Assembly: GCF_963921235.1 (NCBI RefSeq)
Contig: NC_086097.1
Location: forward strand, 134,728,001-134,792,000
Source of the DNA: Mobula hypostoma
Lineage: Eukaryota
Direction of reading: 5' to 3'
DNA: 64,000 nucleotides
Shown here in pieces: positions 32,279-59,160 of this stretch (its first letter is position 1; each line of letters opens with the position of its first letter). The position numbers were made by a program, and so were the translations under genes. A model generated the notes under the pieces. The model ran no database searches and was not told the origin of the DNA. It was given only the letters and a program-made list of their open reading frames with translations.

Positions 32279-34790
32279 TCAGAATCAGGATTATTATCAC
32301 TGGCATGTGTTGTGAAATTTGTTAACTTAGCAGCAGCAGTTTAATGCAATATATAATACAGAAGAGAAAAAATAATAATAAATCAATTACAGTATATGTA
32401 TATTGAATAGATTCAAAATCATGCAAAAAATATATTTAAAAGGTGAGGTGGTATTCACGGGTTCAATGTCCACTTAGGAATCAGATGGCAGAGGGGAAGA
32501 AGCTGTTCCTGAATTGCTGAGTGTGTGCTTTCAAGCTTCTGTACCTCCTTCCTGATGGTAACAGTGAGAAAAGGGCATGCCCTGGGTGCTGGAGGTCCTT
32601 AATAATGGACGTTGCCGTTCTCAGACACTGCTCCTTGAAGATGTCCTGGGTGCTTTGTAGGCTAGTATTCAAGATGGAGCTGACTAGATTTACAACCTTC
32701 TGCAGCTTCTTTCAGTCCTGTTCAGTAGCCCCTCCATACCAGACAATGATGTAGTCTGTCAGAATGCTCCCCACAGTACATCTATAGCAGTTTTTGAGTG
32801 TATTTGTTGACATGCCAAATCTCTTCAAACTCCTAATAAAATATAGTCGCTGCCTTGCCTTCTTTAAAACTGAATTGATATGTTGGGACCCAGTCAGGTC
32901 CTCAGAGATCTTGACACCCAGGAACTTGAAGCTGCTCTCTCTCTCCACTTCTGATCCTATGAGGATTGGTATGTGTTCCTTCATCTTACCCTTCCTTAAG
33001 TCCACAATCAGCTCTTTCATCTTATTGATGTTGAGTGCCAGGTTGTTGCTGCAACACCACTCCACTAGTTGGCATAGCCGCTCTGTACACTCTGTCATCT
33101 CCATCTGAGATGCTACCAACAATTATTGTATTGTCAGCAAATTTAAAGATGGTATTTGAGCTATGCCTAGCCACACAGTCATGGGTATAGAGACAGTAGA
33201 GCAGTGGGCTAAGCACACTCCCCTGAGGTGCGCCAGTGTTGATAGTGAGCGAGGAGGAGGTGTTATCACCAATCCGCACAGATTGTGGTCTTCTGGTTAG
33301 GAAGTCGAGAATCCAATTGCAGAGGGAGGTAGAGAGGCCCAGGTTCTGTAATATCCCAATCAGGATTGTGGGAATGATGGTGTTGAATGCGGAGCTATAG
33401 TCAATGAATAGCATCCTGACATGTTGTCCAGATGGTTTAAAGCCATGTGGAGAACCATTGAAATATTTGGCTGTCATCTGCTGTTGATCTATTGTGGCAA
33501 CAGGCAAATTGCAATGGGTCCAGATCCTTGCTGAGGCAGGAGTTCAGACGAGTCATAGCCAACCTCTCAAAGCATTTCATTGCTGTCGATGTGAGTGCTA
33601 CCGGGCAATAGTCATTAAGGCAGCTCACATTATTCTCCTTAGGCACTGGTATAATTGTTGCCTTTTTGAAGCAAGTGGGAACTTCCGCCTGTAGCAGTGA
33701 GAGGTTAAAGATGTCCTTGAATACTCCCGCTAGTTGGTTACACAAGCCTTCAGAGCCTTACCAGGTACTCCACTGGACCTTCCGCCTTGCGAGGGTTCAG
33801 CCGCTTTAAAAACAGCCTAACTTCAGCCTCTGACACAAAGATCACAGGGTCACCGGGTGCAGCAGGGATCCTCACAGCTGTCGTTATATTCTCCCTTTCA
33901 AAGAGGGATTAGAAGACATTGAGTTCATCCAGTAGTGAAGCATCACTGCCATTCATGATATTGAGTTCTGCTTTGTAGGAAATAATGTCTTGCAAACCCT
34001 GCCAGAGTTGTCGTACATCCAATGTCGCCTCCAACCTTGTTCAAAAATTGTCTCTTTGCCCTTGAAATAGCCATCTGCAAATCAAAACAACAGGAATTCT
34101 GCAGATGCTGGAAATTCAAGCAACACACATCAAAGTTGCTGGTGAACGCAGCAGGCCAGGCAGCATCTGTAGGAAGAGGTGCAGTCGACAAAGCCTGACG
34201 AAGGGTCTCGGCCTGAAACGTCGACTGCACCTCTTCCTACAGATGCTGCCTGGCCTCTTGCGTTCACCAGCAACTTTGATGTGTGTTATCTGCAAATCAA
34301 ACCTGGTTTTCTGGTACAGACCTGGGTCATCAGACTTGAATGCCACAGATCTAGTCTTCAGCAGATGATGTACCTCCTGGTTCATCCATGGCTTTTGGTT
34401 TGGAAATATACAGTAAATCTTTGTAGGCACACACTCATCCACACAGGTTTTAATGAAGTCGGTGACAACCGCAGCATACTCATCCAGATTCAAAGATGAA
34501 TCCCTGAATACAGTCCAGTCCACAGATTCAAAGCAGTCCTGTAAGCGCTCCTGTGCTTCCCTTGTCCAAACATTCTTGGTCCTCACTACTGGTGCTGCAG
34601 TCTTCGGTTTCTGCCTGTACTCAGGGAGTAGAAGTACAGCCAGGTGACCAGACTTCCCGGAGTGAGGGTGTGGGATAGCACGGTAGGCATTCTTGATAGT
34701 GGTGTGGCAATGGTCCAGTATGTTGTTTCCTCTAGTATTGCAAGTGATCAGTTGATAGTAATTGCTTAATGATTTTTTAGATTTGTGGAC
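32279..34790 (-). mobile_element. Rex1/Babar LINE, ~2.5 kb, endonuclease C-terminus through RT to 3' UTR
   Basis: [73 protein letters not shown]; frameshifted. Confidence 0.95.
34087..34287. mobile_element. Fold-back Penelope pLTR insertion with a 14-bp TSD
   Basis: TSD atctgcaaatcaaa at 34073-34086 and 34288-34301; two opposed pLTR arms. Confidence 0.9.
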
Positions 34791-38200: not shown

Positions 38201-38630
38201 GTGCGTGATTGGACTGCAGCCTGTGTAGAGTGGCAGCGGGCAAAAATTAACCATCATGTCCAGGCGTCACTGGCACCTTTTGAAGTCCCTGAAATATGGT
38301 TTGACCATGTCAATGTGGACCTTGTTGCTCTTCTCCCCCACCCCCCCAACATGTTTCACACACCTCCTTAACATGTCGGACCATAGCACCAGAGGTCGTC
38401 CTTCTGGCATCGATGATGGGCCACAGATGCTGGCTTGGGTCGCTCGGTTTGGCACCCCATCTGATATTTCCCTTGACTGCAGTCCCCAATTCATATCAGA
38501 CCGCTGGGTTGCGATGGCCCAGAACCTCAGCATTAGGCCACATCACACCACAGCCCAATGGCCTGTGCGAGCGGTTTCACTGCTGCTGTGAGGGATTCCC
38601 AGACGAATGTGTGTTGGCACAATCGTCTCC
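35228..38630 (+). mobile_element. Decayed Ty3/Gypsy LTR retrotransposon (5' LTR, gag, PR, RT, RNase H, partial IN; 3' end lost)
   Basis: LTR tgtagg...cctaca 35228-35374, PBS-like tggtg; gag MSANAVTLKLSEFW at 35418; CDTGA protease; VDLVRGYYQVP, YLDD, TTDTLDYAVGA; integrase FDHVNVDLV. Confidence 0.93.
37581..37829 (-). mobile_element. LINE 3' end fragment inserted in the Gypsy RNase H region
   Basis: (catagt)n tail plus AATAAA on the minus strand; the Gypsy frame LAYI|SEFTTDI resumes after it. Confidence 0.8.
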
Positions 38631-39139
38631 TGTAGGTCTCATGATGTTCCTCCATGTTTTGATGGTCAAAGCGAACATAGAGGGCACTGAGCTCATCTGA
38701 AGTGAAGCCCTGCTGTCGCCTATATCACTTGACTTAAATTTATAAAAGGAGATAATATCCTAGCATTGCCACAACTATTGAGCATCCTTTGTTGATTCAA
38801 GTTTAGTCCGGAATTGCCAGTTTGCCCATGAAATGGCTTTCCAGAGATTGTACCTGGACTTCTTGAATCTTTCTTGGTTATCAAACTTGGATGCCTCTGG
38901 GTCTCATGGTTCATTCAGAGCTTCTTATGGAGGAAGACGGAATAATTTTTGTGGGGACACACTTGCCTACAACTGTTAAAATAAACTTCTTTGAGGCTTT
39001 CAGAGCCCAGTGAAGTCAGTGGCTTGTGTGATGTCCTGCGATATTTGCCTCCTCTCTGCTATATTGACTACGTAGCATCTAGTTGGGCAGCAAAAGGTGT
39101 AGATGGAGGCAATGGAGGGGAGACGAGCTATCGTGAGAC

Positions 39140-39345: not shown

Positions 39346-40597
39346 AATCTAGTTCATGACTCATTTTGTCACTGTTAACCAAAGCATGAATATCACTCTC
39401 ATTGTGACCAGTACAGCCACGTATCTTGTCCTCTTCCCCCCCCCCCCGACCTTCTTATTCTACCATCTTCCCCCTTCCTTTCCAGCCAGGAGAAGGGTCT
39501 TGGCCCAAAACAACAGCCATTCATTGATTTCCATAGATAGACTGAGCTATATTCACAACTCTGCAATATCTTGTGGTCTAGGGATGAAAAGTTGCTATTT
39601 CATCTGTAAAAGATGGGGAAGATTATGCCGAAGCCCCCTGAGCACATTAACTCATTCTTTATTTTGTTTACCTCACATCATCTCCGCTACTTTTGACTGC
39701 CACCTTACACCTCCACTCTCTGGTTACTTTCCCTTCCAGCCGGCCTGGTGGTTTGAACAATGCTGGATTTACAATTGCAAAGACGCATTTGATTAGGTTA
39801 CTGGAAAATGAAGGGGAATGGCTTTGATTTGATTGTTTTTGGAGCCAGCGTAGATGCTAGAGGTTGCAAAGCCTCTTTCTATGCCATAAGGAAATGAGTA
39901 TGAATGTGAAGTTGATTGTATCAATTTATTTCCTCTCACGTATCAGACAGTGGATTGTTGTCTTCCTGTATCCTGAGCAGCAAGTGTTCTGGTGGATCAA
40001 CACTCTCCATTTCTATCCATATTTCCATACATTCTAATGACATAGGAGACCATTGAGCCCATCAAAATTTATGCCAGCTCACAGAATAACCCTACTACCC
40101 CACTAGTTTTCCCAGTAACCTCACTACTCACTACATCCATTCATAGAGTTCTACAGTGCAGAATCAGGCCTTTTGGTTTGAAGGTATTTGACACCTGCAG
40201 CTTCCCATCTGTTCATGCCTACCCCATGGTAACAGCAGGCATTGCCTGTTTGTAACACTTCGCATCCTAGCAACATCAGACAGTAAAGAGAAACAAGGTG
40301 CGTTCACCAGCAACTTTGATGTATGTTGCTTGAATTTCCAGCATCTGCAGAATTCCTGTTGTTTGCCTGATAACATGGTAGCCATCAATAGTTAAATAAG
40401 TCAAAGGCATTCTTTGGCCAAAGATCTTGTTGATGCCATTAGTACCTTACTCTCTCAATAGCCTGTAAAAATGCTTTTCTTACATGGTGACTGATATGAG
40501 TCCTTGCAGTGCCATTTTATGTTCATTTTCCATCATCAGAAATTCTTGCTTCGTTAGAACATTTGCACGCTGTGAAAATGACATTGCTTGTCATGCA

Positions 40598-42763
40598 TAA
40601 ACACAAGGAATTCTGCAGATGCTGGAAATTCAAGCAACACACATCAAAGTTGCTGGTGAACACAGCAGGCCAGGCAGCATCTCTATGAAGAGGTACAATC
40701 AATGTTTCAGGCCAAGACCCTTTGTCAGGACTAACTGAAGGAAGAGCTAGAAAGAGATTTAAAAGTGGGAGGGGGAGAGGGAGATCCAAAATGATAGGAG
40801 AAGACAGGAGGGGGAGGGATGGAGCCAAGAGCTGGACAGGTGATTGGCAAAAGGGATATGAGAGGATCATGGGAGAGGAGACCCAGGGAGAAGGTAAAAG
40901 GGGAGGGGGGTAAAAAATCAGAGGATGGGCAAGGGGCATAATTTGAGGGACAGAGGGAGAAAAAAGAGAGAGAGAAAGAATGTGTGTATATAAATAAATA
41001 ATGGATGGGGTACGAGGGGGAGGTGGGGCATTAGCGGAAGTTAGAGAAGTCGATATTCATGCCATCAGGTTGGAGGCTACTCAGACGGAATATAAGGTGT
41101 TGTTCCTCCAACCTGAGTGTGGCTTCATCTTTACAGTAGAGGAGGCCGTGGATAGACATGTCAGAATGGGAATGGGATGTGGAATTAAAATGTGTGGCCA
41201 CTGGGAGATCCTGCTTTCTCTGGTGGACAGAGCGTAGGTGTTCAGCAAAACGATCTCCCAATCTGCATCGGGTCTCGCCAATATATAAAAGGCCACATCG
41301 GGAGCACCGGACGCAGTATATCACCCCAGTCAACTCACAGGTGAAGTGATGCCTCACCTGGAAGGACTGTCTGGGGCCCTGAATGGTGGTAAGGGAGGAA
41401 GTGTAAGGGCATGTGTAGCACTTGTTCTGCTTACAAGGATAAGTGCCAGGAGGGAGATCAGTGGGGAGGGATGGGGGGGGTCGAGTGGACAAGGGAGTCG
41501 CGTAGGGAGTGATCCCTGCGGAAAGCGGGGGGGGGGGAGGGAAAGATGTGCTTAGTGGTGGGATCCCGTTGGAGGTGGCGGAAGTTACGGAGAATAATAT
41601 GTTGGACCCGGAGGCTGGTGGGGTGGTAGGAGGATGGAGTGAGAGCAGATGTGCGTGAAATGGGGGAGATGCGTTTGAGAGCAGAGTTGATGGTGGAGGA
41701 AGGGAAGCCCCTTTCTTTAAAAAAGGAGGACACCTCCCTCGTCCTAGAATGAAAAGCCTCATCCTGAGAGCAGATGCGGCGGAGACGGAGGAATTGTGAG
41801 AAGGGGATGGCATTTTTGCAAGAGACAGGGTGAGAAGAGGAATAGTCCAGATAGCTGTGAGAGTCAGTAGGCTTATAGTAGACATTAGTAGATAAGCTGT
41901 CTCCAGAGATAGAGACAGAAAGATCTAGAAAGGAGAGGGTGGTGTTGGAAATGGACCAGGTAAACTTGAGGGCAGGATGAAAGTTGGAGGCAAAGTTAAT
42001 GAAGCCAATGAGCTCAGCATGCGTGCAGGAAGCAGCACCAATGCAGTCGTCGATGTAGTGAAGGAAAAGTGGGGGACAGATACCAGAATAGGCACGGAAC
42101 ATAGATTGTTCCACAAAGCCAACAACAATACAGGCATAGCTAGGACCCATACGGGTGCCCATAGCTACAACTTTAGTTTGGAGGAAGTGGGAGGAGCCAA
42201 AGGAGAAATTACTAAGAGTAAGAACTAATTCTGCTAGACGGAGCAAAGTGGTGGTAGAGGGGAACTGATTAGGTCTGGAATCCAAAAGGTAGCGGAGAGC
42301 TTTGAGACTTTCCTGATGGGGGTAGCCTCCAACCTGATGGCATGAACATTGACTTCTCTAACTTCCACTAATGCCCCACCTCCCCCTCGTACCCCATCCG
42401 TTATTTATATTCACACATTCTTTCTCTCTCTCTCCTTTTTCTTCCTCTGTCCATCTGACTATACCCCTTGCCCATCCTCTGGGTTCCCCCCCCCACTTTC
42501 CTTCTCCCTGGGCCTCCTGTCCCATGATCCTCTCATATCCCCTTTGCCAATCACCTGTCCAGCTCTTGGGTCCATCCCTCCCCCTCCTGTCTTCTCCTAT
42601 CATTTTGCATCTCCCCTTCCCCCTCCCCCTTTCAAATCTCTTACTAGCTCTTCCTTCAGTTAGTCCTGACAAAGGGTCTCAGCCCGAATCGTCAACTGTA
42701 CCTCTTCCTAGAGATGCTGCCTGGCCTGCTGCGTTCACCAGCAACTTTGATGTGTGTTGCTTG
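40598..42763 (-). mobile_element. Penelope-like retroelement, 5'-truncated, with ~440-bp inverted pLTR ends and a 14-bp TSD
   Basis: RT VAMGTRMGPSYAC...HYIDDCIG (41458-42285); GIY-YIG GVIYCVRCSRCGLLYIGET...RFAEH (41031-41885); 42322-42763 is the inverse of 40631-41080; TSD ttgcttgtcatgca at 40584-40597 and 42757-42770. Confidence 0.96.
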
Positions 42764-42854
42764 TCATGCAGGTGGCCCTTGTTTCTTTCATTCAGCATTT
42801 AGTGGTTCTGATACCCTGATTTCTGGCATTTGCTTCACTCATTTGTCTCGGCTC

Positions 42855-43085
42855 TCCACGGTAGCAGGGCAGTTAGCACGATGCTATTGCAGCTTGGGGC
42901 ATCGGAGTTAGGAGTTCAATTCCAGTGCCGTCTATAAGGAGTTTGTACGTTCTCTGCATAGGTTTCTTCTGGTTCTTCTGGGTGCTCCGGTTTCCTCCCA
43001 CAGTCCAGTTAGTGGGATAATTGGTCATTGCAAATTGTCCTGTGGTTAGGCTAGAGTTAAATGGATGGATTGAAGGGGTTGCTCC
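42855..43085 (+). mobile_element. V-SINE (HE1-like)
   Basis: tRNA-like head (gagttcaattcc B-box) plus V-domain gggtgctccggtttcctcccacagtcc. Confidence 0.8.
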
Positions 43086-44368
43086 ATGCAAAAATATAAA
43101 TGTGAATCAGATGTACAGCTGGTGGTCTGGAGTGTGGCCAAGTCCAGGGTCTGACAGCTGGAAGCTGGCATCGGGACCCAGAACACCAGGAGACAGGATT
43201 ATGGGTATGTCTGTGGATCGAGCCAGAGTCTAAAGTGCTGAATATTTCCCTCTTCACTTAGGTTCACTGGGCTTCCTGGAAAATTTTATTATTGCTGCAG
43301 TGGAGTATGTAAAAAGCAGTGTGTTAGGCCATGAATTGAAATGATGTCCAATAGTCTGGAATATCTGCTCATACGACACCAAAACCATCAAGGTTCTGGA
43401 TTATTAGAGTTTTACTACTTCACATTAAGATTTCTTCTGTATTTAAGGAATGTACATCATAAGCAATGATGGCATTTATTGTCATTCCCGACTCCTAATT
43501 GCGCAGAAAATCTGGAGTAACACACAACTCAGATCACGTCAGGACAGCAGATTTGTCTCCCAAAAGGCCACGAGTGGACGATTGTCTGCCCTGATAATTC
43601 CGTCATTCTGTGGTCACCCCAATCAATCCCAGCTTTTCATTCCTGATTTATTCCACATTTAAATTCCCCACCTGCCCTTCAAAGGATTTTGAGTTATGAC
43701 TCTACACTGTCAGTCCACATTTTCAAAATAATACCTCAGTAACACAACCTCTAAAATCCCAGATCAATGTACCTGAGCAGCCTTGATGGCATAATAATAA
43801 TGTTAACATAATAAAAGTCAGGTAAGAAACCACGTTTGATTTCTTTTGGCAACTAAGATATTGAAAATTCAGAAAACAGTGTGTGATTTGAGACACCATT
43901 TACTCTTTCATAATATAGATATGGTGATTGATCACCTGGATAATGTAAGTGGGTTTACATTTTCAACAAAATAGCAGGCATTCTTTAACTTAATGCTTTG
44001 TCGATGTCAATAATATTCAAAGGAACATCTTATTCTGTGGGAAGCCCATAAAAATGCTATCCTGACATCATGACAGATTCCTATATTTTTGGTGCTGTTT
44101 TGTCAGATCTGCCAAGAGGAACAGTAATTTTTCTTTTGTTAGAATCTCTGTTCACTGAAAATTATATTGCTTTACCTCCACTGTGAAAGTAGATCTTTGT
44201 TCAACTCAGATATTGGATTCAATATTTCCAGGATAGACGGCTGTGTGTGCTTTCAGGACTTAAGAAGGCACGAGAGAGAGGAGTAGAATTTGGCCTTTCA
44301 GCCCATCAAGTCTGCTGCATGATTTAATAATGGCTGACTTTTTTTCCAAACCAATTCTCCCATTTCAT

Positions 44369-45090
44369 TGACAAGATGGCGCCAGCGACCAACGTGACCA
44401 ATGGCAACCTCTGCGGACAGCTCACAAAACTACATCTACTACTTCTTTTAACTGCGCTTCTTTTCCTGAACTGCCATTGATTGCAGCCTGCAATTTACAT
44501 TTTTATTTTGTACTTTCGGGTCGACTGAGCAATCTGGCACTTTTGCTATCTCCTGGGGAACTCGGTGAGGTTGAGGGTGGAGCGTGCAGCTATCATCTCC
44601 TTAGGGCAGAACGCGAACCCTTGGTTGGCTCCAGTGCTCCTCGCTGATGAAAGTGTTGAGCAAGATTGAAATTAATGAGGATGAGAGAGGAGGACGAGCG
44701 GGTGTTCAGTGTAGTCTGCCTGCTCTTGACTGGTTACCCTGTCGCTGCTGCCGGTGGAAAGTGCAGGTTTGATCACCATGTTGCGGGTCATGGCCATAGG
44801 ACGTATGGGGGGAGGGGGGGTACTCTGAAGTTTGATGTAGTACTGAACACATTGCACAGTTACGTTCTTATGACTCAGTGACTGTGGCTCCTGGACCGTT
44901 TCTGGGACTCGGTGGTTTGACGTTTAATACTTTATTATTTGCTTGCTTTTTGCTGTTTGCGTGATTTCTTTCCTTTTATTGTGCGTTGGGTGTTTGATGT
45001 TCTCTTTAAATGGGGTCCATGGTGTTCTTTTGTTTTATAGCTGCCTGCAGAGGCCAAATCTCTGGGTGTATATTTACTTTGAAACTTTGG
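44369..45090 (+). mobile_element. Non-coding LINE-derived element (YY1-type 5' end plus Rex1-like tail) inserted in a minus-strand CR1 (44270-45550)
   Basis: Starts caagatggcg; ends gctgcctgc...tactttgaaactttg; the CR1 sequence resumes at 45090. Confidence 0.5.
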
Positions 45091-45889
45091 ACTTCTCCCC
45101 ATAACCCTTAAACCCTTTACAAATAAAGAAACTATCAATTTCTGCCTTAAAAGCACCCAATGACTTGGTCTCCACAGCCTTATGTGGCAACGAATCCCAC
45201 ATATTCATCAGCCTCCAGCTGAAGAAATTGCTGATCATCTCAATTTTGACGGGAAGCTATGTTCTCAGATTTTTGACACTCCCACTCTGTCTAGGCCTTT
45301 CTGTATTCAGGTTTCAATGAGAACACCACCCACAACACCACCTCCCCCCCTCCCCATGTCCTGCTGTACTCCATCAAGTACAGGCCCAGAGACATCAAAC
45401 ACTCTTCATACGTTAAACCTTTCAATCTTGAGACCATTCTTCTGAACCCCCTCTGGATCTCTCTATGGCCAAATACGGCCCGACCAATACATTCATATAA
45501 AGTCTCACTAGTACATCCTTGCTGTTATATTCTAGTGCTCTCAAAATGAATTAGTAACCTTTCTTATTCTTTCTAGAAAAAATTGTTCACTCTCTTCTCC
45601 TATCAGATTCCTTCTTCTTTTCCACCTATCACCTGCCACCTTCTCACTCCACCACCCTCCCCACGCAGTAGACTTCACCTACCACCTGCCAGCTAGTACA
45701 CTCCTCGCTCCTCCCCACCCCCCTTCTTATTCTGGCTTCTTCCCCTTTCCTTTCCAGTCCTGATAAAAGGTTGCAGCCCAAAAAATATTGATTATTTATT
45801 CCATTAATGCTGTGTTCTGCCAACATTTTGTGTGTGTTATGTAGAATTTATATTTTGTGTTTTTCTCGTGAATGCTGGTTATATGATTA

Positions 45890-45925
45890 TGTGTGTGTGT
45901 GTGTGTGTGTGGGTGTGTGTGTGTG
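45890..45925. repeat. (TG)n microsatellite
   Basis: Direct dinucleotide run. Confidence 0.9.
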
Positions 45926-46341
45926 ATGCTGCTGCAAGTAAGTTTTGCAATGCACCTGTGCATAATTACAATTTTGACCTCTTAAACATTAAAAGTATTG
46001 ATATTAAAATGTACAACAGATTAACCTGTGAATTTTTAAAATGAAAATTGTAAATATATAACAATAACTACCACTATATTCAGAAAGTTATCCTAAGGAA
46101 GTTCCACTTTTGTTCTGGTAGCAGTATTATTGTGTGAATTTAATTCACCACATAATGCATTTGGTTACTAGATTAGTATTTTACAAAGCAGACAGTTGTT
46201 GTTAAAGCTATGAAATCTCAGCTATACATGCCGCAAGTAACTCTGTTCCATTGATGCAGTTGTGTCTTAAAAATGAGAATGCAATATTTCATTAAAAACA
46301 ATATAATTTTGTGCAATAATTAAGTAAATGTTCAAGATCAT

Positions 46342-46715
46342 CACTCACAGCACGCTGGAGGAACTCAGCAGGTCGGGCAGCATCAGTGGAAACGAGGAGT
46401 CGACGTTTCGGGCCGGAACCCTTCGTCAGGACTGAAGAAAGAAGGAGGGGGAAGGATTTGAAGAATGCTTGTAGGTTCAGTTGAAAAACCAGTAATTTGA
46501 AAGACAAAGGGGTAGGGGAAGGGAAGCAGGGACGTCATAGGCAGGAAAACAATGGGTAGTAGAACAAGGAGGCGGAATCATGAGAGAGGTGATAGGCAGC
46601 TGGGGGAGGGGGCAGAGTGAAATAGGGATAGAGGAAGGGAGGAAGAGGGAATTACCGGAAGTTGGAGAATTCTATGTTCATACCAAGGGGCTGGAAATTA
46701 TCTGCAGACTATTTT
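46342..46715 (-). mobile_element. Young Penelope pLTR insertion with a perfect 14-bp TSD
   Basis: TSD atgttcaagatcat at 46328-46341 and 46716-46729; CpGs retained. Confidence 0.88.
46398..46433 (-). ncRNA. Minimal type I hammerhead ribozyme, intact
   Basis: AGUC-CUGACGA-A-GGG(UUCCGG)CCC-GAAACGUC-GACU: catalytic core, stem I AGUC/GACU, stem II, palindromic ACGU stem III. Confidence 0.85.
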
Positions 46716-47029
46716 ATGTTCAAGATCATACCAAGTGTAATTCACCCACCCCTCTCTGCTTGCTGATCTATAAGAGCTGCCAAGGTCCTGAACTTAAAAA
46801 ATCTCATCCCAGATTTCAAATTCTTTCCTATCCTCATCATGCCCCAAATCTCTAATCGCCTGCAGCCTTTCAAACTTCTCAGGACAAATGGTTCAATAAT
46901 AACATTTACTGATGATAGCAAATATCAAGAGAAAGTAAAACTAACCCTGAGGAAGAATGCAACTTGATGCGAGATGCTCTCAGGAAACGTCAAGAAGTGG
47001 GGTTTGAGTGATAAATGGGCTTTAACACA

Positions 47030-47530
47030 ATTAGTTCCATGGTAGTAAGATTCAAAGGTGGGCAAGTTATGTTCAACTTGTATATATCATTAATTAGGCT
47101 GCATTAATTGTGGAAAACTGCTCTGATCCCTAATCTGCAAGAGAGGCAGTGAAGCATTGGTTGGGCTTACAATAAGGGTAATGCAACTGAGAGATTACAT
47201 CTGTCAGGTTGCGTCTTCTTTATCCCAAGTAGACAGTCAGAATCTTTTCCCAAGGTGAAAGTGTCAACTACGAGAGGGCACGAATTTAAGATGAGAGGCG
47301 AAAAGTATAAAGGAGATGTTCAGGGCAAGTTTTCCTTTAGACAGAGTGTGGTAGTTGCCTGGAACCAGCTTCTAAGGAATATGGGGGAAGCAGTGGTGTT
47401 TAAGTGGCTGTTAAGCAGATCAATATGCAGGGAAAGGAAGGATATAGATCATATACAGGCAGAAAAGGCCTAGGTCAATTTGAAATTTTGTGCTGATGGA
47501 CCAGTTCCTGTGCTGTACTGTTCTATGCTC
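47030..47530 (+). mobile_element. Decayed CR1 3' fragment
   Basis: TRGHEFKMRGEKYKGDVQGKF...VVVAWNQL. Confidence 0.7.
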
Positions 47531-48084
47531 TACATTCTATATTCGAGGAAAGAGACTTCAAGAAAGGGAAGGAGAGCATTAGAGGGAGGTGATGGGCAGG
47601 TCAGGAGATAAGGTGAGAGAGAGAGAAAAACGGGAATGGGGAATGGTAAAGGGGGGAGACGATTACTGGAAGCCCAAGAAATCAATGTTCATGCCATCAG
47701 GTTGGAGACAATGGTGTCGGAGACAATTTTCTGATGGTACGGAGTGGGGTCCTTTTCAAAGGCTAAATAAGAGAATGTGTCTGTGAGTTGCTGTCTGACC
47801 TCAGCAAAGTAGAGGTCACTCTGCCACAAAGTGAAAATGTACAAACTCCCCACAAACAGCACTGGAGGTTAGGATTGAACCTGGATTTCTGCTCTACCAG
47901 ATGCATCACTGGGCCACCCTATCCTTTGCTTTGCCTTGGTGTGATCCCTACTGATCCCTGCTGGCAATATTCTTAGTGTCTAAGATTGCACAGCCCTCTA
48001 AAGTTGTGATCTCCACAGATTTATCACCCTCTGCTCTTCTCAACTCTTGTCCTGGAACCATTCACAGAAGATGGCCACCTCTTT

Positions 48085-48900
48085 GAGGAATCAGAATCAG
48101 GTTTAATGTCAGTGGTATATGTCATGAAATATGTTGTTATGTGGCAGCAGTACATTGCAATACAGAATAATAAAAAACTGTAAATTATATATATTAAAAA
48201 TGTTAGATTCTGTGTGTGTGTGTGCACGCGCGCACGCACTTAACTCTTGGTGGAGTCATCGGGGTGCCATCATGAAAAGCTTTTTGCACCGATCTTTTTG
48301 GTGATTGCTCATCGTACGGCGTGTCTTGGGCATCTGAAACCCTCTCCAGGTTGTTGTTTTTTTTTTTTACGAGGTCGAGTTGTTAGCTCGACACTCAACC
48401 CAGGCATGGATGGAGAGCGTGCAAGGGAGCCGGCCAGATTCGAACTCAGGACCTCTCGCCCCGAAGTCCAGCGCTGATGCCACTACGCCACCGGTCAATA
48501 TAAGTGCAAAAAAAAGAGAGAAAAAGTAGTGAGGTAGAGTTCATGGGTTCAATGTCCGTACAGGAATCTGATGGCAGAGGAGAAGAAGCTATTCCTGAAT
48601 TGTTGAATGTGTGTCTTCAGGCTCTTATACCTCCTCCCTGCTGGTAGCAATGAGAACAGGGCATAGCCTGGGTGATGGGGGTCCTTAATGATGGATGCCG
48701 CCTTTTTGGGGCATCGCCACTCCTTGAAGGTGTCCTGGATGCTTGGGGGTGGGTGTGGCTAGTGCTCATGATGGAGATGACTGAGGTGACAATGTTCTGC
48801 AGCTTATTTTGATCTTCTGCAGTGGCCCCCTCCACCCCCCCCCAAAAAAAAAAACAGACAGTGATGCAGATAGTTAGAATCCTCTCCACGGAATTTGTGA
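48085..48900 (-). mobile_element. Rex1 3' fragment split by a SINE
   Basis: gaatcagaatcagg tail; ILTICITV...AEDQNKLQ in ORF 48617-48925. Confidence 0.75.
48245..48495 (-). mobile_element. tRNA-derived SINE with intact Pol III A and B boxes
   Basis: A box tggcgtagtgg (48480-48490), B box gttcgaatc (48437-48445). Confidence 0.8.
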
Positions 48901-49227
48901 GTGTCTTTTGCAAGGAGAAATCCAATCCAATATCACTTTCTCAAAATCTTGGCCAGTTATCTTTTCCTCAAGTATTCATTTATTCCCCTTTTGAAAGTCA
49001 CAATCTATTCCACATTCACTTGGTATTCAAGTACATCCTGGAATGCAACAAATTTGCTACAGAGATAGGTTGGAATCTGAAAGTTCTCAGAACAATGGAG
49101 TGTTGAGAAGGAAAGTAAATGAGTATGAGCAAAAAAAAAGAGGAACAGGAAGTGAAATTGAGCTGAGGCAGAAGTAATGGGAGGAGATGTGGATCACCAA
49201 CACATTCTAGATGACCAAATGGAGTCA

Positions 49228-49560
49228 GACAGCACAGAAACAAGCCCATTGAGTCCACACCGACCATCAAGCACCCATTTCTACTTGTAGCACTCTAATC
49301 TCATTTTATTCTCCCCACAACCTCATCAACTTCCCCCAGCTTCTACCACTGACTCACACATTGGGGAAAGGTATTGTTCAATTAACCTCTGAACCTGCAC
49401 ACCTTTGGGATGTGGGAGAAAACCAGATCACTGGGGAGAAAAGGCCCCACGCATTCACAGGGAGAGCATGCAAGCTCCACACGGACAGTGCCAGAGGATG
49501 GGATTGAACCCAGGATACTGGAGCTGGGAGGGAGCAATTCTACCAGCCGCAGCATTGTGT
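49228..49560 (-). mobile_element. V-SINE (HE1-like)
   Basis: V-domain revcomp ctttgggatgtgggag..., B-box ggattgaaccc, CR1-like tail. Confidence 0.75.
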
Positions 49561-51062
49561 CATCCCTGCTGACCTGTCCTGTTGCAGTGTAGCTCTTGAA
49601 GCTGATTTTGTTACCTGCTGATATTTTCACCCTGAGACTGTGCTCTACCAATTGGTAGCCTCATCACATTTTCCTGCATTGCTTGTTGGAATGCACTGTT
49701 GATCAGAATTGTTCCTCCTGCTTGGATCAGCTCAGCTTCCACTCCAAATACTTTGCCCCAGTAAATGGGAAAAGGTACAACATAAGCAAGTCAAACTCTT
49801 CTGGTCGTCATCCTGAAATGCACTTCCTTCCCTCACTATTGCAGATGAATGCAATAGAAAGACCTGGTCCTTCTAAACACGCTAAATACTCACTCCCTGT
49901 TGATGAACCACCTATGGATCCTTAAACTCATGCGACAGGCCAAGGAGGGTTTAGTAATCATCGTGCGTGTGTTCAGACCCCTTCTCTGTGGCGTCAGGTG
50001 AACTTTCTTTGCCATGATTTTGCAGCTTCTACCGGGAAGTGGAGAAATATCAATAGTTGGCGTGCATCTGGAATAGGGTCAGGGACACGGGCAGGATTGC
50101 GGCTGGTGCTATGGTCCAGAGCATTAGGTAGCTGTCAAATCCAGGATTATTGTCATATGCACAAGAACATGCACAAGTTGTTCTCTGAATGGAAGTGTCG
50201 GCCACTATATGTCAAAGTCAAGGTCGAGTTTATAGCATCAGATAAGCAGCATTCACAAGAAAAACATAATGTCGGCAGAAATGAAGCAACCTTATGAGAA
50301 AGAGCCAAACCAGAATGAAATTAAAGTCACCAAAGTGGTGTGTGTTGCTAAACTCCAGTGATTAGGATTGAACCAGTTGCCTCAAGAACAGGAGGAAAGT
50401 AACTGTTCTTGACCTAGTGATGTGAGACTTCAGGCTTCTGCACCTCCAAGCTCAATGTCATTGCCAGCAGGCAGAAAGGTATCCTTCTTTGTTTTCTGCT
50501 CGTAGTCTGAGTTCCTATCTCTCATGAATAGGGAATTAGCGTATGTTTCAGTGAGACACCTGCTAGTTATAGAAATATATTGATTGCACACCACAGAGAT
50601 TCCACTGATGGTGTCAGCCGTGGTTCCATACACGTCAGAATGCTCTTGGTTTAAGCCCCGCTCCGGAGTTTTGAGCATGGAATCGTAGGCTGCAGCTGCA
50701 AAGCAGAGTGAAACACGATGGGAAATGCTGACTTTCGGGCAAGTTTTTGCACAGTCTGCCTTTCCTGTAGATATGCGTTATCGTGGACAGGGGCAGCGCC
50801 TCTGAATGTTTATCTGTCATGTCCAGAATGCAGTTAATACACACTTAGAATATTGCATCTCCAACTACACAACATTCACTCAGCAGCTCTGCACTGGGAG
50901 TGCCAGCCCCATTAATGTGTTCAGCAATTTTGATTCAGCGGCTCTGCAAGTGCTCATAACAATGTTGCTTAAGAGATAAACTTTAGCTCCAAAACAATAG
51001 AAGGACTTGTATAACATGAACTACTGAAAGAAGTAATTGAGGCAGGTACATTAACAAACAGA

Positions 51063-51352
51063 AACACAAGAAAGTCTGCAGATTTGGAAAATCCAAAGCA
51101 ACACACACACAAAATGCTGGAGGAACTCAGCAGGTCAGGCAGCATCTGTGGAAAAGAGTAAACAGTCGATGTTTTGGGCTGAGACCCTTCATCAGGACCT
51201 GCTAGTTCACCTCTCATGGATCCTGATGAAGGATATCGGCTGGAAACATCGACTGTGCTCTTTTCCATAGATGCTGCCAGGCCTACTGAGTTCTTCCAGC
51301 ATTTTGCGTGCGTTGTTTGGATTTCCAGCCTTTGCAGATTTTCTCCTGCTTG
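51063..51352. mobile_element. Fold-back (head-to-head) Penelope pLTR pair
   Basis: Minus arm 51063-51198 and plus arm 51219-51352, each ending at the hammerhead. Confidence 0.85.
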
Positions 51353-52094
51353 TGATTGGTTTCATGCATTTGTGTTTCCAGATGTCATTGCATTAGATGC
51401 TGCAAAAAGGAGCATGAAGTTCAGGGTAAGGGTAACATATTGGCAAGGATAAGGGTGTAGATCACTAACTGAAAACAGACTTAGGATACAGCTCATACTT
51501 GGATTGGCAATCAAGGTCAGTGTTGGGATTGTCTATCTTGATGTCTTGGATGAAGGGACGGACTAAACTACAGCCAGTTTTCATGATACTAAAAAGTGAA
51601 TTTGCAAGCTGTGAAGAGCCTATAAAGGGATATAGATAGGTTAAGTGAGTGGGAAAGAGATTGACAGTTGGAGTATAGTATGAGAAAATATGAGGTTGTG
51701 TATGGAAGAAAGAATGAAATAAAAGTAACTATTTAAATGTATGAAACAACAAAATGTTGCAGTAGGAAGAGATATGGAAGCCCTGATCTATTAAAAACAA
51801 AAGAGTTAGCACTAGGCAGAGCAAATAATCAGGAATTGCAAGGGGCATAAATGTAGGGAAATTTAGACATAGGCAACTTTACAGATTGCACTAAGACTTG
51901 GGGTGTTGCATAGAGTTTGGTCTCCATATTTAAGGAAGGATGTGCTTGCATTGAAGGCAGAAAGTTCACTGGGTTAGTTCCTGAAATGAGAAAGTTAACG
52001 TAAGAAGAGAAGTTGAAGAGGCTGAAGAGGGTGAATGCTTGGGAGGAAGCTGGGTCAAGCACTTAACTATGACTAATTTTGAAGCGGCATGTTA

Positions 52095-52455
52095 AATGGC
52101 ATGAACATCAATTTCTCGAACTTCCAGTAATGCCTCCCCTCTCTTTCACCAGTCCCCATTCCTGTTTCCCTTTCTCACCATATGTCCTTACCTGCCCATC
52201 ACCTCCCTCTGGTGCTCCTCCCCTTGCCTTTCTTTCATGGTCTTCTACCCTCTCCCATCAGATTCCCCCCTTCTTCAGCTCTTCATCTCTTTCACCTAAC
52301 AACTTTCCAGCTCTTTACTTCATCCCCTCCTCCACCTTTTTACTCTGACTTCTCCCCTTCCCTTCCAGTCCTGATGAAGAGCCTTAGCCCAAATCATTGA
52401 CTGTTTACTTTTTTCCATAGATGCTGCCTGGTCTGCTGAGTTACTCCAGCATCTT
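52095..52455 (+). mobile_element. Penelope pLTR fragment (another, minus-strand, at 52748-52872)
   Basis: Matches the pLTR; decayed hammerhead at 52367-52402. Confidence 0.8.
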
Positions 52456-53559
52456 CTCATGTTCAGAATATGAGGCGCTGGTCACCTAGTTTGTGTTTAG
52501 CCTCACGCTGGTAGTAGAAGAAGCTGAGGACAGACAAGTCCTTGGGAATGGAGGGGCAATTTGAAATGGATTGCATCTGGGAGCTTAAGATGACCTCCAC
52601 GGAGAGAACGCAGGCACTAGTCAAAGCAGTTGCCTAGTCTGTGTTCAGTCTTGCCACTGCAGAGGAGATCCAACATCTAACTGTACAGCCGAACCTTGGG
52701 AAATTCAGGACTGAAGACCTTTCATGAAATTACTTACACTTTTGTTACAAACGAGAGAAAATCTGCAGATGCTAGAAATCCAAGCAACACACACAAAATG
52801 CAGGAGGAACTCAGCAGGCCAGGTAGCATCTTTTGAAAAGAGTACAGTCAATGTTTCAGGCCAAGACCCTTCCAGAGCTCTGGAGCAGGTCAGAGGTGGA
52901 ACAGAGGGAGACCGCCAAAGATATTTGAAAACAAGGTTATGAATTTAAAATTGAGCTATTCCTGAAAATATGGGCTCATGCAAGTGTGACCTTCCCATAA
53001 AGCTGCTCAAAAAGATCACTGGATAAAAATAAGATAGAACTTAGTATAGTGCAGCACAGGAACAGACCCTTCAGATCACGATGCTGTGTTGAACTATGAA
53101 ACTGGTAAATAAATGCCAAACTAAACTAATTCCTTCTGCTCTCACATGATCCTTATTCCTCCATTCTCTGCATACTCGTGTGCCTATCCAAGAACACTGC
53201 TATCATATCGGCCTCCACTACCACCCCCGGCAGCACATTCCAAGTACCCACCACACACTGAGAAAAAAACAATTCGCCCCACACACCTCCTTTGAACTTA
53301 ACTCTTCCACCTTAAATACAGACCCTTTAATATTGGACATTGTGACCCTGGGAGAAATATACCAGCTGTCTACTCAATCTATGCTTCTCATCATCTTATA
53401 AACCTCGACCAGGGCTCCCCCTCAACCTCCACCACTCCAGAGAAAACAACCTGGTCTGTCCATCCTCTCCTTACAGCACAGGCAGCGTCCTGGCAAACCT
53501 CTTCTGCACCCTCTCCAAAGCCTCCTCATTTGTCCTATAGTGAGGTGACTGGAATTTCT

Positions 53560-54965
53560 ACAGGTGAACCATGGAGAACATTCTAACTGACTGCATCACT
53601 GGGTGTCCCCTGCACAGGGTCGTAAGAAGCTGCAGACAGTTGTAAACTCAGTCAGCTCCATCATGGGCACTGGCCTCCCCAGCAACCAGACCATCTTCAA
53701 GGAGCGATGCCTCAAAAAGGCGGCATCCATCATTAAGAACCCCCATCACCCAGGACGTGCCCTCTTCTCATTGCAACCATTAGGGAAGGAGGTACAGGAG
53801 CCTGAAGGCACACACTCAACAACTCAAGAATAGCTACTTCTCTTCTGCCATCAGATTTCTGAATGGACATTGAGCCTATAAACACTGTTACGTACCCCGT
53901 AACTGGGTTGCCAAACCAGCAGAGATGGATCACTCAGTTGGAGGCTGGATTACTGGAACTAAGAAAGTTTTATTAAAGAAATAAGCAACACAGTACTCCA
54001 ATCAAAAGGATAATAAATGCAACAGTTCAGCAATGATAATCACACATGTACACAGAATTAAGATAACAGGATCAATCAAGCTCTATCGTCGTCTAGGGGT
54101 AAATGACCAGTTTCAAAGTGACGCAAAGTTCAGTTCAATGGAGTTCAGTTCAGTTCACAGTAATCGCTGCCGTGGCGATGGACAGTGGGGGGGAAGGAGA
54201 GAGAGAGCAAAAGCGAATGAATATTCAAACGGCTTCCACACAGACCTTCGATATTCTTCGCAGTCAGCTTTTGGGCGAGCCCTTTGTGATGTCATCTGAG
54301 GTCACCGACCGTGACCCCCTCCGTTTCCAGATACGATCGTTTCTCTGCGGTGAACCTGGCACCCAGGCAAGGGTGGACACACACCAGGTTCCCGCCGATC
54401 GTACCTTTCCACCCTGTGCGTCCATGGCTTGGTCCCGCGACCAGCCCTCCAAAACTCTCACCGACTTGTGGGAGGCGCACCGCTTCCAGGGTCTCATTAC
54501 CTCGTGGTGTTGTGTGTCTTGCCTTAGCGAACCTGTCCCTTTTTATCCCCCTGCTGGGGTATCGCCTGTCCATCACTTCAAACAGTTCAGGGTTCAAAGA
54601 GGAGCCGATCTTGACAGCTCTCAGACCGTGTCTCCTTCCGTTAAACTCTCCCGTCCCTTCATTAACATCTCCAAATGCTGCTCCACTGTTTTCCTTATCT
54701 CTCTTTCTCCTGAAGACAGGTGGCAGACCAACTGCTCATCCCACTGGTGCCAGCACAGGACAGTTAACATCTTAGTCTATGTGTACTTTCGTCACAACAC
54801 TGCCTCATTACTTTTTTTTTGCACTACGTATTAAACTTTTATATATTTACTGTATAATTTTTATAACTATAGACTGTAGTTTTTATTATGTACTGTATTG
54901 TAATGTACTGCTGCCACATAACAAGTTTCATGACATAGGCCGGTGATATTAAACATGATTCTGAT
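53560..54965 (+). mobile_element. Rex1 3' fragment split by a solo LTR
   Basis: KKLQTVVNSVSSIMGTGLP...KKAASIIKNPHHPG; 3' UTR resumes at 54797. Confidence 0.8.
53886..54796 (-). mobile_element. Solo LTR (911 bp), 4-bp TSD
   Basis: tgttacg...cgtcaca ends; TSD acac at 53882-53885 and 54797-54800; AATAAA on the minus strand near 53970; CpG-rich. Confidence 0.88.
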
Positions 54966-55988
54966 TGAATATAGTATTACAGGTGCAGCTAAATCAGTTT
55001 TATAAAGCTGCAACATAACTTCCTGACTTGTACTCAGTGCCTTGACTAATAAAGGTAAACATGCTTTACACCATCGTTAACCCCAGCAATCCTGCAGCTA
55101 CTTTCAGTGAGCTACAGACGTGGACTCCAATATCCACTCTGCATCAACACTTAAGGGTCTTGCATTAACAGTGTACTTCCTTTTTTACATTTGATCTTCC
55201 AAAGTGCAGCACATCAAATTTGACTGGGTTGAACTCCAGCTACCACTTCTCTGCTCGTATCTGCAAATGATAACACTGATGCATTTCCAGGTAAAAACAA
55301 CTCATAGCAATTGGTAGTAGAAGGTCCTACACTCACCTGCACAGTGGTTGAACTAAATTTCTCGGGTCTCTGCTCGAAGCATTTTGAGGATAGCGTGATG
55401 AGAATATGAAAAAGTTTTGAAAAACTTGCATTGTTATAGCAGTGCTGTAACTGTTAAAATGTAGAACATATTTAAAAAATAGCAGCAGTAGAAATCCATT
55501 CCCCCATCAAGCCTGTTCTGCTATTCAATACCATCACCACTGACTCTCTGTCCGATTTCTCTGTACTGATGCCATGTGAATCTGAAAATCTATCTTTCTT
55601 CATCTGAATGATATTCAGTAATTTGGCTTCCATAGCTTTCTGTGGGACAGAATTCCACAGCTTCACTGAACTCTGAGTGAAGAAGTTTCTCCTAATTTAA
55701 GCCCTAATTATTTTATTTTTGTATCCTGAGATTGTGATTCCCTGGGTCTAAGTTCCCAGTCAGGAGCAACATCTTCCCTGAATCCAACGTATTAGATCTG
55801 GGCACATTTCAATGAGATTCCTTCTCAATTTTTTGAACTTTAGTGAGTAGAGGCCTAATCAAAGCAACCTTGAAGAACAGTTGCAATAGACCAGGAATTC
55901 ACCCTCTGAGGCAAGTGTATCCTTCCTGAGCCCAGAGTCCCAAAACTGATCACTTATCCCAGGTATGCTCTCACCGAGGCTCTATAAC

Positions 55989-56462
55989 TGTCAGCACCAC
56001 CAGTTGAACTCTGTCTTGTTGTGTGTTTTCCCCCTAGCTGTCAGTCTGTGGTTTTGTATTGCCATGTGCTCCTGTCCCTGCTCCTGGTCTACTCCAGCCC
56101 CTGTATTACTGAGTACTCCGTCTCTCATCTGTTCCTCATTGTTACCTGTATTGCTGCCACCTGTGTCTCATTGTGCTCCACCTATCATCTGCCTCTCTGT
56201 TTATTGCTCAGTGTATTTCAGTCCTGTGTTTTCACCTGTTTGTTGCCAGATTGTGCCAGTGAATTATCCTGAGCCTGTCCAGCATTCAAATCTGTACTCT
56301 GCCTGTTTCCCGATTCTGGTTTTTGGATTTCTCTGGATGTTTTGATCTCTGCCTAAACTTTGATGCTGACTTGGTTTGCACCTTGGGATTTGTTACTCAA
56401 TTAATATCACTATGTGCACAGTACTAGGTCTGTAATTGGATCCCTGCTCTAGTGCCCTGACA
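55989..56462 (+). mobile_element. Solo LTR (474 bp) inside a minus-strand CR1 fragment (~55480-56780)
   Basis: tgtcag...ctgaca inverted ends; TSD degenerate. Confidence 0.6.
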
Positions 56463-57082
56463 GTATCATTTAAGTAATAAAACCTTGCTCCTGCATTGAA
56501 AGCTACCATCCCAATTGCTTTCTGTACTGCTTTCTTCTTGGGTGTGGAGACACAAGACACTGGAGTTCCTAGAATTTGGAATCTGCCTGACCTGCGGAGT
56601 TCCTCCAATATTTTGTGTATTGGTCCCCTTGCGGGCTTCCTTTCTGTGGCTGGTGGGCAAGGACACCCCGATCCCCATGTACAACAACTCTGCCCTACCA
56701 ATCGCTATTAAAACAATATTGTCTTCCAGGCTTTCAGACCAAAGTGGATAACTTCACTCTTATCCACAATGTACTATGCCCAGTTGTCTAAGTCATCATA
56801 TAGTCACTATGCACAGAAATCTCCCCACAAACAAATACCCAGAATACCTGCCTTGAGATGCTGCCTGGCCTGCTGCTTTCACCAGCAACTTTGATGTGTG
56901 TTGCCTCTATCTTACAGTCTTGTGTGAGTACAAAGGTGAAGGCTGAGCTATCCAGTGCAGTGCTGAGGGAGTATTGGAGGTGACATTTTATGGAGGAGAC
57001 AGGAGATTGAGGCCCAGTATCCTCCCTTAGGCAGACAAACCTTTCATAATATTGTAGAGAGTGGCAGAGCTCTTTTCCTGGG

Positions 57083-57388
57083 CTAAATGCTGAATGAAAG
57101 AAACAAGGGCCACCTGCATGACAAGCAACACACATCAAAGTTGCTGGTGACCGCAGCAGGCCAGGCAGCATCTCTAGGAAGAAGTACAGTTGACGTTTCG
57201 GGCTGAGACCCTTCGTCAGGACTAACTGAAGGAAGAGGTAGTAAGAGATTTGAAAGTGGGAGTGGGAGATCCAAAATGATAGGAGAAGACAGGAGGGGGA
57301 GGGATGGAGCCAAGAGCTGGACAAGTGATCGGTAAAAGGGATATGAGAGGATCATGGGACAGGAGGCCCAGGGAGAAGGAAAAGGGGG
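57083..57388 (-). mobile_element. Penelope pLTR plus 39 nt of flank, copied from 42489-42802
   Basis: Reverse-complement match that continues across the element/flank junction. Confidence 0.9.
57188..57223 (-). ncRNA. Minimal hammerhead ribozyme (core intact, one stem I mismatch)
   Basis: AGUC CUGACGA AGGGUCUCAGCCC GAAACGUC AACU. Confidence 0.7.
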
Positions 57389-58619
57389 AAGGATCCTCTC
57401 TTAGTTTTACCACATCACCATATCTTAGTTTTATAGCGGAGTCTAGTGGCACCAATTCTATCCTTGAAGTCTTCTGGATCAAACTCAATTGTTTTGTACA
57501 AGAGAAGTTCATCATGAGCTAAAGGCACGTCTTTAATCGGTATCAGAAATGAGGACATGACCAGCTGAATTCACAAGGCTGTCTGAAATTTAATGAACAG
57601 GTTAGGGCAGCACTTGAAAATCAGTCTGAGCTGTAAGCATGAAGAAGGTGTGAGAGTGTTGGTTGTCCATTGTATTCCCTTGCAGAATTTGATTCCGTTG
57701 ACTCTGCTGTACATTAGATATTTTAATCTCCCCTTCTCCCGCACCCCAACCCTTCCCATACAACAATAAAGAGACAGACAGACACACACACAAAAAGCTG
57801 ACCTTCATTAGCTAATGCATAAGATACAAGAGCACAGTGCTTTTGATACAAAACATTGGCTGGATTGAACCTTGAGCAGTCTGTGCAGGTCACCAATCTT
57901 TAGGATGAGACTGCACAAGGAGGATTCACCTCCAGGTTCCCTGGGATGGATTGTTGAGGAGAGAGTGGAAGGGTTGGGTTTGTTTTCCTTGGAGTGCAGT
58001 GCAGGAGACTGAGGAGTGATCTGATTTACTGCCGTTATGAGAGGCATAGACATAGTGAATGGCAAGAGACTTTTCCCCATAATTGAGGCATCTTTGGTTT
58101 AAAGGTGTAATTGGATTAGAGAGGATCTGAAGATTTCATTTTTCACCCAAAGATGGCTGCAACCAGGAACACAATGCCTGAGAAGGTATTGAAGGGTGGT
58201 ACTCACCTGATATTTAAAAACTATCTGGTCAAGCACTTGAATCAGCAAGGCATTGAGGATTGTCATTTCTTCACAGCTATATGTGAACCTCTCCCTCTCC
58301 CACTAACACACTTTAAATTACAACTTAATGTGTAAGTGAAGTCCTACTGAGAAGGGCAATGAAGTCTGTCATTTCCTCAGAGACTGTTCCCTTTTAGCTA
58401 CTGGAGTGCAAATCTTGTTTCGTGCATTGTACCCATGTTACAAAAAGAATTCACAGGTTACATTTATCTGCAGAAGGAACTTTACTGGCAGCGTTGGCAC
58501 ATTAGATTACAACAATATTGGGAGGCAAAGGTCGAGGGAACTCTCAGAACAGCAGAAGGAGCAAGTGTTTCCAGGGGAACCAGTGGAATGAGGAAGGACT
58601 AGACATTGAGGACAATAGG

Positions 58620-59160
58620 GGGATGATTATTGGTAATTGGTTCATGTTTGTATGAAGTGGAAAGTTTTTTCATCGAGACAGCCTTTCCATATTGAAGTAT
58701 ATCGAGGTAATATAAAGAAAAACAGAATGCAGAATATCGTGTTGCAGCTACAGAGAAATTGTGGTGTAGGTAGTCAAATAAAGTGCAAGAGCCACAACGA
58801 GATAGACTGTGAGGTCCAGAGTTCATCTATAGTGTAAGAGTGGTGTGTTACAAGAGTCCGACAGTAGCGGAATAGAAGCTGTTCTGCAGTTTGGTGGTAC
58901 GTGTTCTCAGGCTTTCGTGTCTTCTGCCTAAAGGGATGGACGAAAAGAGAGAATGGCCAGGATAGGAAGGGCCTTTGTTTATATTGTCTGCTTTCTCAGG
59001 GCAGTGGGAAGTGCAGGCAGAATCCAAGATGTGCTCTCCACTGTCCACAACTCTCCTGCAATAGTTGCTGTACCAAGCTGAGATGCATCAGGATAGGGTG
59101 CTTTATATGGTGTATCGGTAACAATTGTTGTGTTATCAGTGACATGCTGAACTTCGTTAT
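58620..59160 (-). mobile_element. Rex1 3' fragment
   Basis: YPGHSLFSSIPLGRRHESLRTRTTKLQNSFY. Confidence 0.75.

Follow-up and report, generated by a model that had tools for sequence, protein, structure and literature searches.

The canonical insertion of an EN+ Penelope-like element (PLE), as described in PMC8557442 and PMC11167929, has an inverted 5'-truncated arm and an optional tail of 30–40 bp. In vitro, the reverse transcriptase (RT) of a Poseidon-clade element starts at two internal sites that define this tail, at about +111 to +118, and, apart from a weak band, 3' additions make no difference; even so, the first 172 nt of the ORF are required (PMC11167929). Mobilisation of host DNA by PLEs is described in Adineta vaga (PMC3846280; treated as PLE transduction in PMC6431247), where the cargo lies between pLTRs and has an 8-bp TSD. 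In L1 3' transduction (PMC6431247), the 3' end of the element and its unique flank, with the donor TSD, are found at a new site, with 5' truncation. Finally, class 2 templated insertions (TSI/TSIP, PMC5110952) and MMBIR insertions (PMC8421209) are short copy-and-paste events, fixed in the germline, in which the donor stays intact, no TSD, poly(A) or poly(A) signal is present, the junctions carry micro-repeats and the insert is inverted with respect to a nearby template.

The window analysed here is a stretch of 64,000 nucleotides from Mobula hypostoma (contig NC_086097.1, positions 134,728,001 to 134,792,000). It contains a two-arm Penelope insertion and, 14 kb away and in inverted orientation, a copy of one end of that insertion together with the host DNA next to it, as the initial annotation had described. 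The copy is real; it is a single case and without sign of function. The features concerned are:

40584–40597, plus strand: left TSD of the donor insertion, 14 nt (word match).
40598–42321, minus strand: main arm, a 5'-truncated PLE with RT C-terminus, CX4CxxC linker, GIY-YIG endonuclease, pLTR and a 32-nt tail at 40599–40630 (ORFs, Pfam).
42322–42763, plus strand: second arm, inverted and tail-less, 89.6% identical to the main arm over 452 columns; 42491–42763 is the donor of the copy.
42757–42770, plus strand: right TSD, 14 nt, of which the first 7 nt are common to the pLTR end (word match).
42764–42802, plus strand: donor flank that was copied (within-window alignment).
56848–56904, plus strand: tail-less pLTR fragment of 57 nt, likewise from the young subfamily, placed tail-to-tail to the copy at a distance of 178 bp, 94.7% identical to the donor and 93% to the copy, with no TSD above null.
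56905–57082, no strand: host segment of 178 bp between two inward-facing Penelope pieces, with no paralogue in the window.
57083–57121, minus strand: copy of the host flank, 39 nt (7 TSD-only plus 32 nt), 39/39 identical to 42764–42802.
57122–57392, minus strand: copied pLTR part, with its tail-less 3' end at 57122, 5' truncation in a G/C run at 57388–57392 and a 6-nt deletion relative to the donor.
57195–57219, minus strand: boxes of a candidate minimal hammerhead core and stem II region, intact in the copy (motif scan, fold).
57390–57433, plus strand: junction scar, with about 28 nt resembling the copy inverted, 11 nt repeated directly (57399, 57423) and a palindrome of 8 nt at 57390 (scans against null, chosen post hoc).

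Among the described systems, class 2 templated insertions, or MMBIR insertions of longer range, appear closest to the copy in how they work; it shares with these the features named above, micro-repeats being seen at the distal junction. However, MMBIR templates were searched only within 100 bp in PMC8421209 whereas the template here is 14 kb away, which counts against the analogy with repair; TSIP donors, for their part, are described as distant (PMC5110952), whereas here the donor lies at 14 kb and the copy is 87% Penelope pLTR, including the canonical tail-less end. With the Adineta vaga cases it has in common that host DNA was moved with a pLTR, and a trans mechanism acting on unspliced templates is conceivable. 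In contrast to that cargo, the host DNA here lies outside a single pLTR, at the position of the tail, without a TSD and near its donor; the host flank at the tail position also sets the copy apart from a canonical EN+ insertion. From L1 3' transduction it differs in having no poly(A) tail or signal and no new TSD, and in its local rather than dispersed site. In composition, an element 3' end plus unique donor flank with the donor TSD, the copy fits a 3' transduction, but the hallmarks of TPRT are missing (no TSD, poly(A) or full second arm, and none of five single-arm PLE pieces in the window has a TSD either), and it is therefore not classed as one. L1 reverse transcription starts at the poly(A) tail, that of PLEs internally.

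The donor insertion (40598–42763) has exactly the canonical layout, with a 14-nt TSD: the GIY-YIG domain is C-terminal of the RT, the truncated second arm is inverted, the two arms face outward and the tail is present at the left end only. The arms differ from each other at 35 of 438 columns, 9 of these being of CpG type. Pfam recognised the GIY-YIG domain at 22.7 bits (cut-off 22.6) and the RT by a weak RVT_1 match only (E 0.15), and the longer donor ORF queries gave no Pfam match. A CX4CxxC motif precedes the GIY-YIG domain, and a CCHH motif was also seen by eye in the translation of 41031–41924. As characterised in PMC8557442, the Penelope/Poseidon clade is without a CX2-5CxxC zinc-finger linker between RT and EN, and the Neptune (or Nematis) clade has this linker plus a CCHH motif; judged by its motifs, the donor element is Neptune-like (or Nematis), not Poseidon-like. 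A random microhomology as the end point of the second arm was considered and rejected: pieces at 34287 and 56904 end at nearly the same point, so that this is the usual tail-less end. An old repeat left of the donor (40405–40589) has a 60%-identical direct paralogue at 43976–44172, the alignment halting at the donor insertion site. This paralogue was rejected as confirmation of the empty site, since it is not continued into the 39-nt flank and 170 of 300 shuffles score as well.

The copy at 57083–57388 is the reverse complement of 42491–42802 (93.3% identity over 312 columns, E 3e-134 in the within-window comparison), the source starting at 42491 and being separated from the copy by 14,280 nt. 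Its distal end possibly reaches 57392, within a G-run. The 39-nt flank is found at two places only in the window (42764–42802 and 57121–57083), any other match being of 19 nt at most. The initial annotation had taken it for the TSD plus 32 further nucleotides that do not belong to the element, and this was borne out: all 39 nt match, and the first 7 nt of the TSD coincide with pLTR sequence. It is extremely unlikely that the 39 nt are instead the standard tail of a pLTR subfamily, or that the copy is an assembly chimera. Of the 39 nt, the first 7 belong to the TSD and are also present left of the donor, which makes the carried sequence host DNA rather than the tail of a subfamily, and the normal tail is found at all three tailed young ends of the window. 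Unlike a read chimera, the copy differs from its donor at about 7% of columns, the 6-nt deletion included. A contig of the same species spans 57364–58900 with 0 differences, though it reaches only 25 nt inside the copy (below our 31-nt bridging rule), and what leaves some room for a chimera is that the junction 57082/57083 is not visible in contig alignments swamped by paralogous repeats.

In 261 three-way columns of the pLTR, 8 sites set the copy apart, 5 the donor and 14 the left arm (13 substitutions between copy and donor, 22 between copy and left arm). Only two of the 14 left-arm-odd sites are demonstrably derived and common to copy and donor. These are the variants that had been noted as shared with the 42.6-kb arm; both are indeed present but carry little weight, as both are CpG-to-CpA changes at hypermutable sites and recur in older copies in the window, the first in the 51-kb and 52.4-kb pieces and the second in the 22-kb piece. 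By our own count, the chance of an independent coincidence of both is about 0.05. The copy descends from the 42.6-kb arm, at least at its flank end. This restriction matters for a one-sided ectopic conversion, in which a pLTR would already have been present at 57.1 kb, a break would have occurred near its 3' end, and the resected strand, after invading the closest homologous sequence, would have been extended past the end of that sequence into 39 nt of flank and then end-joined, leaving only the flank-proximal part derived from the donor. Such a conversion would account for the locality, the involvement of the pLTR and the missing TSD together. Between copy and donor there are differences at 3 of 135 columns in the proximal part and at 11 of 175 in the distal part, with the terminal 68 nt identical (P about 0.03), and at one distal CpG the copy is ancestral where both donor arms are derived. 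However, the contrast between proximal and distal parts is not significant (Fisher P 0.10) and one CpG homoplasy is expected by chance, and we consider conversion quite unlikely.

Outside CpG sites, the changes form a star-like pattern (6 in the copy, 5 in the donor, 7 with the left arm odd), and non-CpG divergence is 4.2% between copy and donor against 5.9% between full arms. By likelihood, the age of the copy relative to that of the insertion was estimated as 1.0 (0.65–1.0) from non-CpG sites, 0.19 (0.05–0.79) from six CpG sites and 0.81 (0.47–1.0) jointly. The two clocks thus disagree, and copying in the same event and somewhat later copying are both compatible with them; divergence places the copying at or soon after donor insertion. 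Ancestral CpGs were lost unevenly (left arm 6/6, right arm 3, copy 2; 40631–40907 compared with 42486–42763), which suggests unequal methylation or chance.

Contigs were aligned to 39400–58900 at 85% likeness, from one run of this species, one of relative B and two runs of one sample of relative E. Divergence from the window was 1.9% for relative B (149/7998, over all eight pieces listed) and 8.6% for relative E (597/6938, all eight listed, one run). The summed contig depth at pLTR position 40649, which is not a copy number, was 5.4 million in this species, 10.8 million in relative B and below 2,000 in relative E, with single-copy depths of about 14, 45 and 14, respectively. Normalised depth at this position is thus about 2,700-fold higher here than in relative E, whose contigs were possibly assigned elsewhere, and the depths suggest that the subfamily is commoner by a factor of thousands both here and in relative B. 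This points to a burst of the pLTR subfamily after the split from E; donor insertion and copying probably both fall between the E and B splits. Pattern scans for further copies of the subfamily gave 0 in viral contigs and 0 in metagenome contigs.

The copy retains a hammerhead core that its source has lost, as the initial annotation had stated. Both core boxes and helix II are present in the copy, and the donor (second arm) has one substitution in each box; the core is broken in both donor arms. The boxes at 57195–57219 were called with the hammerhead core motif and make the structure a candidate ribozyme. An Rfam search returned no hammerhead match, its four sub-threshold hits all lying elsewhere than the copy, and a PDB sequence search found nothing. 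Minimal hammerheads of PLEs are treated in PMC4209133. Core boxes are also kept in several older Penelope pieces of the window, at 22542, 46405 and 51223.

The initial annotation had the copy land inside an old Deu-type SINE. The host segment at 56905–57082 is a putative sequence of this kind, and no second copy of it was found in the window. The SINE-like host sequence presumably continues across the copy, which would imply a simple insertion. Deu-domain SINEs are reported in skate and dogfish (PMC2746220). In relative E, a 2280-nt contig is aligned to 57902–58750 with its part from position 1438 on; a contig of this length is compatible with an empty site (it then reaching the repeat at about 55.96–56.46 kb) and also with equal spacing (its start then lying at the end of that repeat). 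This repeat, at about 55960–56463, is a high-copy sequence of some 500 bp with TG...CA-like ends seen by eye, possibly a solo LTR.

No clear TSD had been seen at the copy by the initial annotation, and the longest word common to both sides is indeed 5 nt, the mode of the null (1000 random window pairs). The copy has no poly(A), and AATAAA and ATTAAA are both absent between 42322 and 43100. At the distal junction, the sequence at 57392–57420 resembles the inverted copy, with 23 of 30 columns matching. Scores this high were reached by 19 of 3000 random windows in comparison with the whole copy, by 0 of 3000 in comparison with its nearest 80 nt, and by 32 of 2000 with the query moved one base later; part of this inverted near-copy may reflect host SINE sequence. 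The 11-nt direct repeat at 57399 and 57423 has equals in 4 of 886 windows, all simple or tandem repeats. The repeats at 57390–57433 were chosen post hoc. Inverted plus direct repeats at junctions are given as a signature of synthesis-dependent end joining in PMC2943611. At the flank-side junction nothing was above null. Two further candidates were rejected: the 8-nt palindrome at 57390 is not significant (194/3362), and a resemblance of the left target flank to the pLTR is due to chance (1903 of 2000 null windows).

The geometry of the locus is formally compatible with inverted duplications at the breakpoints of a 14-kb inversion (42803–57082), arisen through a staggered break or a botched Penelope insertion. 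Yet no convincing crossed TSD-like words were found among 14 ends, where the only 14-nt matches are the two true TSDs and the best other word is a 10-mer, about chance. If, as we assume, the SINE-like host sequence runs on across the copy, a simple insertion is implied as well, and we regard an inversion as very unlikely.

On balance, and with only modest confidence, we favour the reading that the copy is a break-repair patch templated by the nearby second arm and 39 nt of its flank. This would make it most likely a known kind of repair scar. The copy, its donor, its polarity, the missing TSD, the micro-repeats at the junction and an approximate age are seen in the sequence, and the break, the kind of template, the polymerase and the direction of synthesis are deduced. 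On this reading, a chromosome break near 57.08 kb would have been patched with 306 nt copied from the second arm and flank, at or soon after donor insertion, while the subfamily was active. Either the DNA of the donor or a nascent transcript that had not left the locus may have served as template, and synthesis would have been that of host repair (template switch, then end joining) rather than normal Penelope priming. The break itself was possibly a Penelope endonuclease nick. New cDNA of the second arm, still single-stranded, would offer an accessible template ending a few dozen bases into the flank; in a variant, a second broken end would, in the course of insertion or shortly afterwards, anneal in the G/C run of this cDNA and synthesis, directed towards the flank, would drop off shortly after entering it.

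Several observations argue for a repair patch. A random retrocopy would land within 14 kb of its source about once in 100,000 (our own arithmetic, for a genome of roughly 3 Gb). The distal junction has inverted and direct micro-repeats, the non-CpG changes are star-like with a copy age of 0.65–1.0 of the insertion age, and TSD, poly(A) and poly(A) signal are missing, as in class 2 templated insertions (PMC5110952). In addition, the tail-less donor arm ends about 90–95 nt past the equivalent hammerhead position, before the RNA needed by the Poseidon RT, so that read-through RNA should be a poor substrate; this last argument is weakened by its transfer of a rule from a Poseidon-clade protein to a Neptune-like element. 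Other observations count against repair. The flank of 39 nt is close in length to the tail of 32 nt, both taken from the same point, and the later date preferred by the CpG clock conflicts with copying in the same event. Host end joining also completes the 5' ends of retro-insertions, which lessens the value of the junction as a discriminator. A sequence-blind patch of 306 nt would show the anatomy of the copy about 0.5% of the time, so the pLTR was probably causally involved.

Both mechanisms put forward by the initial annotation are possible, and descent from the 42.6-kb arm at the flank end stands; its headline of 3' transduction, however, is less likely than repair. In a Penelope 3' transduction with local reinsertion, the promoter of the second-arm pLTR would read into the flank, and element protein from another source, acting in trans, would bind the chromatin-tethered RNA and nick nearby DNA; with reverse transcription beginning roughly a tail's length beyond the end of the pLTR, host flank would replace the tail. 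We hold this to be doubtful, though a serious candidate. Polarity and anatomy fit TPRT, with the flank at the primer end and the 5' end truncated, and the length of the flank is near that of the tail, but its excess of 7 nt is unexplained. The age of the copy falls inside the active period of the subfamily, and no other young duplication in the window involves DNA from outside the elements: with the minisatellite excluded, 19 matches reach 25 nt and 90% identity, all of them Penelope pieces, and only the copy carries non-element DNA. Two other pieces end in G-runs as the copy does (8948, about 46462). PLEs mobilise unspliced host DNA in trans according to PMC3846280, and a weak product primed at the 3' end is described in vitro (PMC11167929), although the same source has the Poseidon protein requiring downstream RNA that this template does not have. 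The copy shows no TSD or full second arm, against TSDs of 12–14 nt at both young two-arm insertions. Transduction also requires local reinsertion; in the literature searched, which falls short of most subscription journals, we found no report of local PLE reinsertion or of flank carried outside a solo pLTR.

A more specific form of this idea is that a Neptune-type protein acts in trans on the tethered nascent read-through RNA of an old insertion, measures the RT start from the pLTR, so that flank replaces tail, and inserts within the same chromatin loop. We think this unlikely. If it were true, short local duplications of flank would arise from every tail-less arm, and the 57-nt piece that faces the copy across 178 bp would mark a second nick made by one and the same dimer; local hopping of PLEs and 3' transduction of this ruler type were not found described in the literature searched. 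As a repair patch, the copy is a tidy example of a known mutational scar, and would matter if it were one of many. Given the massive expansion in this lineage, the genome is suited to asking how PLE RT chooses its start in vivo, where the tail comes from and whether elements reinsert near their donors.

The other Penelope pieces in the window served as controls. The TSD survey covered 11 intervals; for two older two-arm elements the ends are approximate. TSDs of 12–14 nt flank both young two-arm insertions. No TSD above null was found at the five single-arm Penelope pieces, the two older two-arm elements, the copy, or the copy taken together with the 57-nt piece. Since single-arm pieces are also without a TSD, the missing TSD does not separate the mechanisms, and to that extent it is compatible with transduction. 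The second of the young two-arm insertions, at 34085–34287, is a miniature of the same subfamily with a tail on its left arm only and intact hammerhead boxes in its right arm.

Young insertions are clustered, two gaps of 250 bp or less being present among five (simulated P 0.0017, uniform placement, post hoc), which is in line with local reinsertion as transduction would have it. The elements may prefer to insert close to copies already present, or nicks may be made in pairs separated by roughly one nucleosome. A tailed young piece of 66 nt (40299–40364) lies tail-to-tail with the donor insertion across 233 bp. It has the tail variant of the 34-kb element and not that of the donor, so that this pair, at least, looks independent. 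At its 5' junction (40289–40298) stands a 10-nt word of the reversed 39-nt flank, at about chance level.

Older Penelope subfamilies, 70–85% identical to the young one, are present at 8808–8948, 22437–24830, 39426–39538, 45679–45838, 46339–46462, 51055–51358, 52096–52872 and 56583–56618. Decayed frames resembling LTR-retrotransposon pol were seen at 36753–38700, with an integrase zinc-binding match of E 0.0003, below the cut-off. A 46-bp minisatellite of about 36 copies (92% matches) occupies 26464–28085 and yields long spurious ORFs.
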